Both the position numbers and the translations under genes were made by a program. Below, piece by piece: positions 1,751 through 46,515 of a stretch of 64,000 nt of DNA; positions within the stretch are counted from its first letter, which is position 1, and each line of letters opens with the position of its first letter. The stretch lies in NCBI GenBank assembly GCA_013239625.1, contig MU053629.1:282676-346675 (forward strand), written 5' to 3'. The notes beneath the pieces were generated by a model. The model did no database searches. It was not told the DNA's origin and worked only from the letters and a program-made list of their open reading frames with translations. Origin of the DNA: Lama guanicoe. Its lineage: Eukaryota.

Positions 1751-2059
1751 CTATTTTCTCTCTTGAGACACATACCTTCTAAGCTAGCTATGAGGAACCC
1801 TGAGCCACATATATGGGTTTCAGCTGACAACTCCTGCTTCATGGAGGTGACATGATAGGAGAGAAACCCAGGGCACTCAAGGTGGTGGACCTAATAACAC
1901 TCTACCCCCATAAAATTTGGACCCCAAAAGCGAATGGAAGGTCCACAGAAGCACTACCACTTCCCAACAGACGGCAAAGCAAACTGCCTCCCTTAAACTG
2001 CCTCTTCTGAAGGGGAAGGAGAACATCCCTTGAGGATTCATAACCACAAGCATTCCTCA

Positions 2060-2870
2060 TGAGGTTTGAAGCCCCCACACCACGCTCCCTCCCTCCCTCT
2101 CCCTCCCTCCGGCCAGGAGCCTGGGACCTGGGCTGTGAGTAAAGCCCTAAACAGGGTCTCCAGCGACCAGCAGCCTCCTCTCCCCATGGCCGAGGTCTCC
2201 CAGGGCAGTCTAGCCCCCCTCCCCCCGGCCTGTGCCCTGCCCCGCTGCAAACCTGGGGCCCCCGCGAGGCTGAGGGCTCTGGCCTTGGCGGGGGAAGTTG
2301 GACTGTGGCTGGGCCGCCCCCTGGAGAGAACCCCTCCTCCTGCCTTTGTCCAAGGCCAGGCGCGTGGGGCCAGGCGCTGGGGGGTGAGCGCGGCCACTGT
2401 GAGAAGCGTGTAATTTCCACCCGCCCCCGCCCCTCCCCAGGCGCCTGGCTCTCCAGCTGTTTTCTTCCTCTGGGCTGCGGAACCTTCTGCAGATCCTCTC
2501 CCAGGACGAGGAAAGCAGATGTCGCTCTCCCCAGCAGGCCCCCGAACACCCTCCCCTCCCCCCACAGGGCACCTGGCTCTCTCCCTGCTTAATTCTCCAG
2601 TGGCCGCTGCCCTTCACTGCAGCTCGGGGGTCGGGGTCGGGAGCAGGGTGACCTGGCCCCCAGCTGCCCTCTCTGGGCTCAGGGCCTGTGTCTGGGGAGG
2701 GGAGGCTGGGTTCCCCTGGGGAGGGCCCGGCTGCCCAGCCGAGGGGTCACCAGGCGGGCTTGCTGGGGCCTGGCCTGTGTCTGAGGAGGCTGGGGGCTCA
2801 GAGGCCTCTGTGTGCGGGCAGGGCTGGCTTGCAAAGTCACAGGGCACACGTGCAGGGCCCCTCGCCAGCA
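2060..2870. promoter_or_regulatory. GC/CpG-rich island-like element 1 (candidate promoter/enhancer)
   Basis: High GC, locally elevated CpG, GC boxes (ccgccc near 2315 and 2421), G4-type run 2626-2648, possible donor GGG|gtgagc near 2384. Confidence 0.55.
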
Positions 2871-3964
2871 TTTTCAAAGTGCTTTCTCTCCACCTGGACA
2901 GTGGATTTCAGGCATCTCCGTCATATTTTCAGGAAAATGGGGGTGGGGTCCCTTGGGCTCAGAGAAATGAAGCCACTTGACCAGGGTCAGAGGGCAAGTG
3001 GGAGGGGTGGGACTGGAGTCTCAGAGGGGACAGGACTAGCGGGCGGCCCCCTCTCGGCAGTGGATCCGGGCTTCAAGTGGGGCTTCAGTGGGACCACGAG
3101 GGCTCAGGCTTGCCCGGGAGCTCATCTCCTCTGTCTGGGGAGATGTTTCTGCCACCTTTTTCTCCACAGTGCTGGGCTGGGCCTCCTTTAAGCCCCCAGA
3201 ACAAGGTGGGTCACCTCCAATCACCCAGCCCGGTTCCTCTCATTGGAAAGGCGTGCCCTTTGGTGAAGGGGAGGATGCATTTTTGAGGTGAAATATTGTA
3301 TACAGCCAGGAACAGAAAACATTAAAAGACCATGGATGTCAGCAAGGTTCGCACCAGGGCCAGAAAGTTCAGGAAAAAAGACAAAGCTTCCTTGCAATGA
3401 AGGATCAGCCAGGCGGTCCACACCCTGTGTCCCAGGCTTCCTCCATCTTCAGGGTTAGAACAAGCCTTGTCTGGGCCTGGGGAAGGTCCCAGGGTGGTGA
3501 CCTCAAGAAAGAGTTGCCAGATATGCAGAAAATATGCATATCCTGTATATGCAGAATATGCCCCATATGTATATGCAGCATATGCATATATGCATAATAT
3601 GTCCCATATAATTTTGCCCTGCATCTTATATTGACCTTGTCAGAATGCCCTAAATGTCTCGTATTCAGCTTTTTTTCCAATAAATTGCAAGAGTTTGGCA
3701 ATTAGAGCTTTTTTTCTGCCACGGTTACTGGTGCTTGCATCACTTAAATGGCAGCACTGGTTAAAAATCACACACATCCTTCCTAAATAAAGATCTGGAC
3801 CACTCTTTATGTTCTCTCCTGCAGACTTAGCTGTGGGAGCATCAAAAGAGGGGACTGGCAAGTGTAAGCACTTACTTTTATATTCAAGAAAGGGAGAAGC
3901 TATTCTTTAACCAAAATCCCAAGTCAAGAACATAACCACTGTTAATTAGAAGTGACTTGGGTCT

Positions 3965-4430
3965 ATACACAAGGAAAGTCTGAGAAACCGTCACATTCAG
4001 TAAGGGTCTGAGCAGACATGATGACTATAATGTGCTGTCCTGGATGGGATCGTGGAACAGAAAAAGGACTGGGTAAAAATTAAGGGAATTTGAATAAACT
4101 ATGGCCTTTAGTTAATAACAACATATCAATATTGGTTTGCTGACTGTGACAAATACACCATATGAATGTAAGATGCTAATAATAGAGGAAAATGGTTATA
4201 TGGGGACTCTACTATCTTCATAATTTTTTTGTAAATCTAAAGCTATTCTAGGGGGAAGGGTTTAGCTCAATGGTAGAGTACATGCTTAGCCTGCACGAGG
4301 TCCTGGGTTCAATCCCCAGCACCTCTGTTAAAAAAAATTAAATTAAATAAATACATAAATAAACCTAATTACCTACCCCCCCAAATAAATAAGTAAAACT
4401 ATTCTAAAATTTTAAATGTATTTTCAAAAA
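3965..4430 (+). mobile_element. L1MC-like 3' end, interrupted by a SINE
   Basis: tcctggatgggatcgtggaacagaaaaaggac...tgtgacaaatacacca...tgtaaatctaaa..tattcta. Confidence 0.8.
4251..4394 (+). mobile_element. tRNA-derived SINE (vic-1-like, long form)
   Basis: Box A tagctcaatgg, box B ggttcaatcc, AT-rich tail with aaacctaattacc; TSD aaagctattcta/aaaactattcta (4239-4250, 4395-4406). Confidence 0.92.
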
Positions 4431-6139: not shown

Positions 6140-6258
6140 ATATATATATATATATATANNNNNNNNNNNNNNNNNNNNNNNNNNNNNNNNNNNNNNNNNN
6201 NNNNNNNNNNNNNNNNNNNNNNNNNNNNNNNNNNTATATATATATATACACACACACA
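6140..6258. repeat. (TA)n/(CA)n microsatellite spanning a 76-N assembly gap (6159-6234)
   Basis: Directly visible. Confidence 0.97.
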
Positions 6259-15165: not shown

Positions 15166-15303
15166 GGGGAGGGTATAGCTCAGTGGTAGAGTGAGTGCCT
15201 AGCATGCATGAGGTCCTGGGTTCAATCCCCAGTACCTCCATTAAAATAAACAAATAAATAAACCTAATTATCTTCCCCTCCAACAAAACAAAACAAAGCA
15301 AAA
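15166..15303 (+). mobile_element. tRNA-derived SINE (vic-1-like) within an old L1 3' fragment (~15030-15780)
   Basis: ggggagggtatagctcagtggtagag...gggttcaatccccagtacctcc; TSD agaaacaactt (15151-15161, 15304-15314). Confidence 0.93.
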
Positions 15304-34266: not shown

Positions 34267-34553
34267 TTTTTATTTTTCTAATTTTTTAATGCATTTATTT
34301 TCTTTGAAGCTTTTAAAATTCTTTTTTTCTTTTAGTGGAGGTACTGGCAATTGAACCTAGGACCTCGTGCATGCCGGACGTGTGCTCTACCACTGAGCCA
34401 TTATCCCCCATTTCTGTTTTTGTTTTGGGGGGTAGGTAATTAGGTTTATTAATTAATTAATTAATTTTTAAATAGAGGTACTGGGAATTGAACCCAGGAC
34501 CTTGTGCATGATAAATACACACTCTACCACTGAGATATACACCCCACACACAC
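34267..34553 (-). mobile_element. Tandem pair of vic-1-like SINEs
   Basis: Two tRNA-like heads (5' ends near 34410 and 34545) inside one TSD tggtatatttta (34255-34266, 34554-34565). Confidence 0.9.
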
Positions 34554-40746: not shown

Positions 40747-40847
40747 GGGGGCTGGGTATAGCTCAGTGGTAGAGCCTACGCTGAGCATGTGCAGGGTCCT
40801 GGGTTTAACCCCCAGTACCTCCATTAAAAAATCAAAAATCAAAAATA
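40747..40847 (+). mobile_element. vic-1-like SINE (short form)
   Basis: TSD aaagatgcactatctt/aaagatgcaatgtctt (40731-40746, 40848-40863). Confidence 0.92.
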
Positions 40848-43734: not shown

Positions 43735-43910
43735 TTGATTTGAGCTTCATTACACAACAGAACCCCTGGGCAGCTGGTTAAAAACATACAAACCTGGGTC
43801 CCATCACCCAGAGATTGTGATTCAGCAGGTGAGAAGAGCAGCCCAGGAATATGCGTGTTTACCAAATACCCTGGGTGATCCTGGAGCACTCTCAAGTTTG
43901 AGAAGCACCC
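43735..43910. mobile_element. MER5A-like MITE
   Basis: cctgggtcccatcacccagagattgtgattcagcagg...caagtttgagaagcac. Confidence 0.7.
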
Positions 43911-43929
43911 CTCTGTGGTGGTGGAGACC

Positions 43930-45600
43930 CTCGAATCGTGGTGCGAACAGGAGCCAGCTGCAGAGGCCTAGACCGCGATGCGGCTTCAGGAGTATCACAA
44001 AACAGATGCTGATTTCGTTTTTTTTTACTTTTGTTTAAAACGAATTCAACGAAACGGAGAGTAAACGCATCTATAACTGAAAGGAAACCCGATCTTAACA
44101 GGCTCTTGAGCCAGGGGTGGGAGCAAGGAGGCCCACAGGTCAGCCGTTCGGGAAGGAAGGCGTGCTGTTCCTTCTCAGCTGCGGGCGCCCCAGAGCGCTG
44201 AGGCCGTCAACTGTCCCCGCCCGCAGGGAGAGGCGCGGCGCGGCGAGCGCGCGGCGGGCCTGGGAGCCCCGCCCCTCAGGTGGGGGCGTGGCCTGAGCGC
44301 GGGCCTCCGCGGGAGGACCAGACGCGGCTTCGCTAAACCAGGCTGCAGGCTCGCCCACTAAAGCAGAACCTAAGTCGTGCACCTCACCAAAGATTCTGAG
44401 TCCCGGACTGACGTCCACTGGGTTCCACCTGATGCCTTGCCTCCCTCAGAGACAGCCCCTTGCTTCTGCAGAGCCCGTCCAGTCCAGGCGGGGAGGGCCC
44501 GTTTGCTCCAGCCCCCCTGCCCCATGCCTCCCTGTCACCCCCGGCTCGCCTCTTCTGTGCCTCAGACGTGCTTAAAGAGGTTCAAAGAAGAAGCATTTTT
44601 AAAAGTTGGCACCACGAGGAAAGTCAGCCTCCCTCTGAGGAGGATTAGCGGTACCTGTCTCTGTGGAGTTGTCCGACGAACCTCCGTCCGCCCGAAGTCT
44701 CCTCACGGCAGGCCCGCTTCCGGGAGCTGCCAGACTGACGGCGGGAAAAGCCCGGCCTCCGTGCGGCACCCAGGTGGGCGCGGGGCCCGGGGTGCGGACG
44801 GAGACGTGGGGGCGGGGCGGGGGGGCCGAGGGTCCCCGCAGGACGGGCGCTCAGGGGCAGAGGGCCTCCTGGCTGGTTTCGGGAATGGGGCCAAGAGCCG
44901 CCTCAGGGTAATGGCGAGGGCAGGGACACGGGCGACGGCAGCTTGAGCGGGGGACGTGGACTCCTGAAACCGGGACGGCCCGCCTGTGGTAGAGCTGAGC
45001 CTTCGGGCGTGCGGGCGCGGGTCCGGGGGACGCTGGGGTGCGCCCCGCCTGGCTTGTCCCGGGAGCGAGGGTAGAAGAACGGAGCAGTTGTTTCCCGGTC
45101 TCAGTGGAGGACTGGGTGGTGTCCCTCCTCCCTCTTCCTCGGGGGCCCGAGGCCCTGTTCTCTCTGGAAGGAGGCAGGGAGGCAGTTAAATGCCTGGGGC
45201 TAGAAAAGCTGCCGGAGAAACAAGTGGGGAAACATGGAGGCTGAGAGGCGGTAGGGCAGAGAGAGAGACCAGGAAAATAAGAGCAGAGAAGGAGAGCACA
45301 AAGGACAGGGAGATGGGGACCGACGCAGCGAAAAGGAGAAGGGGCCGGGACGGGTTAGACCCGCGGTGCCCGCCGCGCGCGTGTCCGCGTGGCGCTGCGC
45401 TTCCCGCCGCGCGTGGGGACCGCAGTCCGGCGCCGAGAGCCTTGGTCCTGGGACGCGGGGCGCGGCCGGAAGGGCGGCCGCCCCCTCGCCCGTCACGCTC
45501 CGCACGTTCGTGGGGAACGTGGTACTAAACCATTTCGGGGCGACCTGCTTTGGGGGGGTGGGGGTCGTACGTAGCAGAGCGGCTCCCTCGCTGCCATCTA
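43930..45600. promoter_or_regulatory. CpG island 2, candidate (possibly bidirectional) promoter
   Basis: Dense CpG; ETS cttccgg 44717-44723; tgacg plus E2F-type ggcgggaaa 44736-44748; GC boxes/G-runs 44808-44825; outward-facing splice donors at 44654 (-) and 44774/44908 (+). Confidence 0.75.
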
Positions 45601-45711
45601 TTGAAAATCAGCCGTTGGCACAAGGGTTTGCAGAAAAAAAGGAGGAGGAGGAGGAATTGAAAAAAGGAAAAAAATATATTAAAAAAGAAAGAAAAATTAA
45701 AGAAAGAGAAA
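45400..45711 (+). pseudogene. Retroposed 28S rRNA 3'-end fragment with A-rich tail (SINE28/LSU-rRNA-type)
   Basis: ggcggccgccccctcgcccgtcacgc..cgcacgttcgtggggaac..ctaaaccatt..cgacctgctt..tcgtacgtagcagagc.gctccctcgctgc.atctattgaaa.tcagcc..cacaagggtttg matches the mammalian 28S 3' terminus (roughly 85% by eye against recalled human sequence); ends at 45630, tail 45632-45711; 5' limit ~45360-45400. Confidence 0.93.
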
Positions 45712-46417
45712 GCAAGGCGATCAGAGTCACAATCTGACTCTCCTTCTATGTGGTCTCGCCGTGGGCTCTTTGGCCTCGCAGCGGCTTCCTTGGGAAAAGT
45801 CTGCCCTGGGCCAGAAGGGAGGGTCTTCCACAGATGGTGGAGGGATGTGCGGAGGCTGCTGGAATGTAGGACTAAGAGGCCCTTGCAGTCGGGGGCAATG
45901 GAGAAGGGGCTGAGACAATCCGTCCTCTCTCATGGTGGAGGCCAGGGGACCCATGTGCAATAGGGGTGACAGCACCTACCCCTAGGGGGACGGAAGATGG
46001 CGTAGTCACCTCAGCAGCAGTGCCGAAGGTTCGTTCCAAGAATAATGATGAGGGACTGCACCACTGAGGAGTTCGTAGGGACAGCAAGGTGTCCATCTCA
46101 GGGGTATTTACGTGGTGGAGTCCTTGCAGCTTGATTGACCAGCTGTAGAGGGAAAGGGAAAAAGGAAAACCAAAATCTATACCTGGGTTTCTATTTTGAG
46201 TAATGGGTGGATGATCATGCCATCAACTAACAGGGGATAAAGGAAATGCAGATTTTATGAGGAAGTCACTTCTGTTGTGCTATTCGTTTTTGTGCAGAAA
46301 ACAATAACTGGCCAATAAACATGGGAATATGCTCAACTCCACTATTAACCAAAGAACAGAAGTTAAAACAAGATCATTTTCTTATCAAACTCACAAAGAT
46401 ATAAGATTCAGAAATAT

Positions 46418-46515
46418 GGGGGTATAGCTCAGTGGTAGAGCACATGCTTACCATGCACGAGGTCCTACGTTCAATCCCCAGCACTGCCATTTAAAAAAGA
46501 GAAAGAAAGAAAAGT
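46418..46515 (+). mobile_element. vic-1-like SINE (short form) inside an old L1 fragment
   Basis: TSD agaaatat (46410-46417, 46516-46523). Confidence 0.9.

Follow-up and report, generated by a model that had tools for sequence, protein, structure and literature searches.

The window, a stretch of 64,000 nt from Lama guanicoe (contig MU053629.1), holds a native single-copy CpG island (43930–45130, ~1.2 kb, 100 CpG, GC 0.65, CpG o/e 0.79), followed by a purine-rich, CpG-poor gap of 185 bp (45131–45315, o/e 0.30). Beyond the gap lies a 5'-truncated retrocopy of the 28S rRNA 3' end of the SINE28 (LSU-rRNA) type, 272 bp on the plus strand (45360–45631, 40 CpG, GC 0.72, o/e 1.15). Its decayed A-rich tail (45632–45713, plus strand), 82 nt in length and 65% A, includes a short (GGA)n run and leads into a single-copy 3' shore (45714–46100), where o/e is 0.41, and then 0.22 beyond 46100. 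The initial annotation had called the copy contiguous with the island; the copy does sit at the island's edge, but the CpG-poor gap intervenes.

The native part has GC-box-like and CRE-like motifs. Its GC skew runs from −0.14 (44300–44700) to +0.30 (44800–45340), with the sign changing near 44600–44800, and a switch of such size is found in 2% of 545 regional windows. Since such skew has been associated with unmethylated island promoters (PMC3787257), the base composition makes it plausible that transcription of the plus strand could start upstream of the copy. Two G-quadruplex-like plus-strand G tracts (44808–44832 and 45005–45029) were seen in the positively skewed part of the island. On the other side of the copy, in the 3' shore, ETS-like and YY1-like motifs adjoin each other at 45991–46002; this pairing is common at start sites.

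Pfam searches returned nothing over the cut-off, either for ~180 of the 627 window frames of at least 45 aa, a search that small or non-Pfam exons could escape, or for 80 of the 1926 flank frames. A C2CD4-family gene, presumably C2CD4B by synteny, lies on the minus strand ~89 kb upstream of the island. Downstream, a second CpG island is found at ~30 kb, with talin FERM_f0 exons ~223 kb beyond it; human TLN2 lies on chromosome 15. The window island was considered as the talin promoter and rejected, as the second island fits the published distance instead: the 5' end of mouse TLN2 lies within a promoter island, in a layout that matches the second island and the talin exons (PMC2702505). Therefore, the window island is an orphan CpG island, and the talin-2-type promoter island lies 30 kb downstream of it. 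None of the 37 human SINE28 loci in Table 1 of Longo et al. 2015 (PMC4994717) is on chromosome 15. Elsewhere in the window, 2000–3300 is GC-rich (0.66) and CpG-poor, with no Pfam match, and is not an island by o/e; 6159–6234 is a run of 76 N.

Anatomy and identity of the retrocopy

Own-genome matches to 45360–45631 were obtained at 37 other places (72–88% identity, mostly 79–88%), and at least 48 SINE28-type copies were examined in the genome. Homology to the sister copies starts at 45360 and ends at ~45631, where other copies also stop before the A tail. Most of the 29 fetched sister copies end at that same base, and many carry perfect target-site duplications of 12–18 nt. Unlike most young copies, the window copy shows no exact target-site duplication of 8 nt or more. 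The best candidate for the 5' duplication, 45331–45342 on the plus strand, agrees with 45637–45648 at 11 of 12 positions, which does not exceed chance level, as 9 of 60 shuffles score as high.

Rfam gave no LSU match to the copy when the whole window and 45200–45800 were searched (none up to E 1). Its 28S identity was established indirectly, because the genome's rDNA contig, which Rfam recognises as LSU rRNA, agrees over its terminal 31 nt with the 5' end of one paralog (L002) at 31/31 positions. Taken together with the 5' truncation, the shared end, the A-rich tail and the dispersed copies, these alignments confirm 45360–45631 as a SINE28-type copy of the 28S 3' end, in agreement with the annotated match of ~230–270 bp to the 28S terminus and decayed tail of ~80 nt.

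Several family members deserve a remark. The only rDNA contig found (G000:C658, loci L031/L037) is gapped and ends before the 28S 3' end, and shows a few pair-breaking changes against the Rfam model. Two pairs of retrocopies are tandemly duplicated together with their flanks, lying 2.1 kb (L008/L011) and 3.2 kb (L064/L065) apart, and a near-copy in the latter group (L077) sits on a 533-bp contig. Another copy (L012, G000:C8365) ends ~47 nt before the usual end, without an A tail and with an 8-nt flanking duplication.

CpG retention and the reality of the divergence

Because the genome's own rDNA contig ends before the compared region, the majority consensus of 27 sister copies was used as the ancestor. 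Nine of these 27 have zero non-CpG differences from the consensus, so it should be close to the recent 28S. The compared core spans 229 nt, with 169 non-CpG sites and 29 ancestral CpGs. A first background, queried with the window copy, favoured young copies; older ones were added with a young-copy query, for which 40 of 86 candidates were scored. From 50 aligned loci, 47 paralogs were left after removal of the window copy, L083 (span under 60) and L077 (a near-duplicate of L064), the tandem duplicates L011 and L065 having been excluded before alignment. The paralog sets in the separate steps number 26, 48 and 47, and the old-paralog comparison set consists of 22 copies with at least 5% non-CpG divergence. 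BLAST still prefers copies with less decay, so that the CpG comparison errs on the conservative side.

The window copy carries 28 substitutions in the core and differs from the consensus at 20 of 169 non-CpG sites (11.8%), the third highest value of the 50 rows. Nevertheless, 22 of its 29 ancestral CpGs are intact, one has become TpG and six were lost otherwise. Decay to TpG/CpA therefore stands at 1/29, versus 221/406 in the 22 comparably diverged paralogs (p=1.4e-8, for a single locus chosen after the fact and with sites taken as independent). Among the paralogs, this decay amounts to 24/281 at divergences below 2%, 111/241 at 2–5%, 127/245 at 5–9% and 94/161 at 9% or more. Of the 26 copies that have 10 or more CpGs and are 3% or more diverged, the window copy shows the lowest decay (0.03), the next being 0.20. 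The annotation had described an old copy with most CpGs intact at ~12–15% difference, naming three changes (GGAAAGG>GGAAGGG, GCAGC>GCGGC and GTAGAC>GGGGC), all of which are present, and it had proposed a comparison of CpG loss with other 28S retrocopies, which places the window copy far below the background. That the copy is old rather than young is supported by its non-CpG divergence, its decayed tail and the lack of a perfect target-site duplication.

Retention is not conservation. Seven CpGs were lost from the core and seven gained, leaving 29 now against 29 ancestrally, so that CpG has turned over. Core GC rose from 0.67 to 0.70, whereas 21 of the 22 old paralogs dropped to 0.49–0.63. CpG sites have often undergone transversion (6 of 58 sites), as have those of the oldest methylated paralogs (7.5%). 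The flanks of the window copy are the most CpG-rich of the 50 loci, with an upstream o/e of 0.75 at GC 0.69 and an overall flank o/e of 0.65, the next being 0.57.

The substitutions are unevenly placed: 11 of the 28 are packed into the 29 bp of a plus-strand G-run cluster (45535–45564; P=0.006 for such clustering), which also holds 7 of the 11 A/T-to-G changes. This cluster may have arisen by slippage, complex mutation or assembly error. Altogether 16 changes are to G, many of them beside G runs, where such changes resemble platform error. The numbers of A/T-to-G and A/T-to-C changes are 11:1 (p=0.006), and 4:1 outside the cluster; the to-G bias therefore rests largely on 29 bp whose base-level status is unconfirmed. 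Both this strand skew and the six transversion-type CpG losses are unexplained. Amelioration toward the local GC skew was tried as a cause of the bias and rejected, as the paralogs do not track their flank skew (rho 0.00, 27 copies).

These features raise the alternative that the copy is younger than it appears, with its divergence, chiefly to G, produced by sequencing or assembly error, in which case the CpG retention would be trivial. A young 28S copy in the same genome (L007, G000:C5673) lends this some plausibility: its 17-nt duplication is perfect, but of the 10 changes in its core 9 are not deaminations, and it shows internal tandem expansion of a short unit, with possible assembly errors. 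The reality of the window sequence was examined with 239 sampled words of 43900–46300, scored for presence in sequencing runs under the assumption of random word sampling. The 232 31-mers that cover the diverged core are all absent from the paralogs and the consensus, and 0.93–0.97 of the 239 words are present in 14 DNA runs (8 studies, 4 organism labels, one a possible source), with 0.96 and 0.95 in runs from independent studies. Were all differences errors, ~23 words should be missing, which is rejected at P=0.002 for run X2 and 0.01 for run X3, the bound being weaker for labels B–D (P=0.06–0.14); the narrower proposal that all to-G changes are errors is rejected for X2 at P=0.007. Six RNA runs, with 0.10–0.22 of the words, were not used as evidence. 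The divergence is thus mostly real. The cluster is a different matter: even the best run lacks up to 8 words, and ~6 would go missing through the cluster by itself, so that word shares cannot vouch for 45535–45564, and it may be error. Without it, however, the result holds, with 12 of 146 non-CpG sites changed and CpG decay of 1/26 versus 196/350 (p=7e-8). Given this, and the decayed tail without a clean duplication, we regard the error reading as very unlikely.

Possible hypomethylation, gene conversion and co-option

The substitutions were fitted with a simple likelihood model using paralog-derived rates, which is rough in that counts are small and a single decay hazard is used. With the cluster, the negative lnL was 31.5 for an ordinary copy, 15.4 for an unmethylated copy, 11.7 for GC bias alone and 7.6 for both terms, the best joint fit having an age of 0.115, B of 1.9 and methylation of 0. 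Without the cluster, the corresponding values were 20.0, 10.0, 11.3 and 7.7. GC bias alone thus fits about as well as hypomethylation alone. Adding the unmethylated term to the GC-bias model gained 8.2 in 2xlnL with the cluster and 7.3 without it, while adding the GC-bias term gained 15.5 and 4.7, respectively. In these models, therefore, the unmethylated term is needed with and without the cluster, and GC bias is strong only with it. The annotated proposal of a copy unmethylated in the germ line is accordingly upheld at the level of the fit, where that term improves on GC-biased conversion alone. Judged from its substitutions, the copy is likely unmethylated in the germ line, although a plain unmethylated model does not predict frequent CpG transversions.

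The strongest competing account is a long-lived recombination hotspot, at which GC-biased gene conversion would raise A/T-to-G/C changes and purge TpG/CpA, whatever the methylation. Weak-to-strong and strong-to-weak changes number 12:4 in the window copy against 88:164 in the paralogs (p=0.002), and this account would also cover the rise in GC and the large gain from the GC-bias term. Much of the signal goes with the cluster, though, the ratio falling to 5:3 (p=0.14) without it, and the model continues to require the unmethylated term besides GC bias. Furthermore, GC-biased gene conversion is strand-symmetric, a symmetry at odds with 11 changes to G and one to C. A hotspot as the main cause is therefore in our view unlikely; some GC-biased conversion has perhaps acted all the same, alongside passive shelter of the copy.

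A second alternative reverses the roles of copy and island. In one form, the island would owe its origin or part of its length to the copy, which would now be retained as part of a regulatory element specific to the lineage, such as an enhancer or a CTCF boundary near the talin-2-type promoter. With its 40 CpGs the copy is the most CpG-dense part of the island, and one substitution improves a weak CTCF-like match in it (45590–45604, minus strand, 2 mismatches to the consensus), in a window that has 12 such matches where 5.7 are expected. The same change is, however, present in the decayed paralog L022. The native island is four times longer than the copy, is set apart from it by the gap and qualifies as an island without it; other CpG-rich copies did not resist decay alone. 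Moreover, the copy is among the three most diverged. Predicted stems cover 24% of the core and hold 6 of the 28 changes; of the 5 altered pairs, 4 can no longer form and compensatory changes are absent, so that no RNA-structure constraint was seen on the 27 confident predicted pairs of this small test. Nor was selection for new CpG seen, as the gains match random placement (P=0.47, or 0.12 without the cluster). By these sequence measures, the annotated co-option into the island is unsupported. The suggested extension of the island stands in part: by composition, the copy makes the CpG-rich stretch longer, with 40 CpG over its 272 bp, but the native island qualifies without it. We therefore hold seeding or co-option to be quite improbable. 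The fuller version, whereby an rRNA retrocopy nucleated or extended a lineage-specific orphan island and, now germ-line-active and GC-driven, is turning into G-skewed regulatory DNA that carries a new CTCF-like site, seems to us just as doubtful.

We consider it probable, on the substitution pattern and the surroundings of the copy, that this is an old insertion which evolves neutrally and which the neighbouring island shelters passively from methylation in the germ line. The anatomy of the family shows a tailed 28S 3' end copied into the genome, and L1 machinery would have reverse-transcribed it into this site. The insertion appears old, at 8.5–11.5% divergence in paralog units, which would correspond to ~35–55 million years at an assumed neutral rate. 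It would have landed ~230 bp from an island that was probably already present, because the 1.2-kb unique island has its own motifs and skew switch. Beside this likely promoter- or enhancer-like element, the CpG-dense copy would have stayed unmethylated, with C-to-T deamination at the ordinary rate, since only 1/29 CpGs decayed. Otherwise the copy would drift neutrally, with a mild bias toward G/C, its CpG losses equal to its gains.

Relation to known elements

SINE28 elements derive from the terminal ~500 nt of 28S rRNA, measure 65–437 bp and end in an A-rich or simple-repeat tail; their target-site duplications are at least 85% identical and absent in some members, with an L1 endonuclease hexamer at the site, and their transcription is RNA polymerase III-dependent (Longo et al. 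2015, PMC4994717). The window copy conforms in being a terminal 28S fragment within that size range, with an A-rich tail, and one of many dispersed copies whose origin seems to be within the lineage. It departs from them in its lack of a convincing target-site duplication, its place at a CpG-island edge and its kept CpG content. That paper also reports that copies are closer to their own lineage's 28S than to other species' copies. At a single site, with no other species compared, the window copy has T where its own consensus has T and the human primer (PMC4994717) has C.

Shelter at island edges is a principle already known from Alus. Those Alus at CpG-island boundaries that lack methylation in every tissue are rich in CpG and of low similarity to their consensus, with a CpG-rich flank on one side and a CpG-poor one on the other (Jorda et al. 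2017, PMC5204336), and element methylation is reported to mirror the flanking promoter sequence (PMC12582260). The window copy is alike in its high GC and CpG, its low similarity to the consensus, its proximity to an island and its flanks (o/e 0.79 upstream, and 0.41 then 0.22 downstream). It differs in being rRNA-derived rather than 7SL-derived, and its methylation state is deduced here, whereas that of the Alus was measured. By this analogy, the locus looks like the 28S equivalent of the island-edge Alus. A search of the openly accessible literature found no description of a SINE28 or 28S copy sheltered at a CpG island.

Two further systems bear comparison. Insertions or GC-biased conversion underlie the turnover of orphan CpG islands (Kocher et al. 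2024, PMC11170920); the window island is likewise intergenic, no coding exon having been recognised in it, and it too holds a retro-insert and an excess of weak-to-strong changes (p=0.14 without the cluster). At PPP1R26P1 in RB1 (PMC3839921, PMC4122923), an island inside an mRNA retrocopy reportedly acts as an imprinted promoter. The window retrocopy likewise contributes CpG-dense sequence, but most of the window island, unlike that one, is native.

The value of the locus is modest. Young sister copies give the ancestral sequence of the window copy almost exactly, so the copy serves as a natural reporter of how germ-line substitutions accumulate over long periods at the edge of an island, in a species for which epigenomic data are scarce. 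What it reports is deamination near zero, CpG held by turnover and a slight G/C bias. Should outgroups lack the island, rRNA would be a source of new CpG-island sequence, and the locus would matter more.

Other repeats were also seen in the window. Four tRNA-like Rfam matches (4256–4327, 15169–15240, 34473–34544 and 46418–46489), each followed by an A-rich tail, are probably tRNA-derived SINEs, and further tRNA-like elements were noted by eye near 40750 and 50450.
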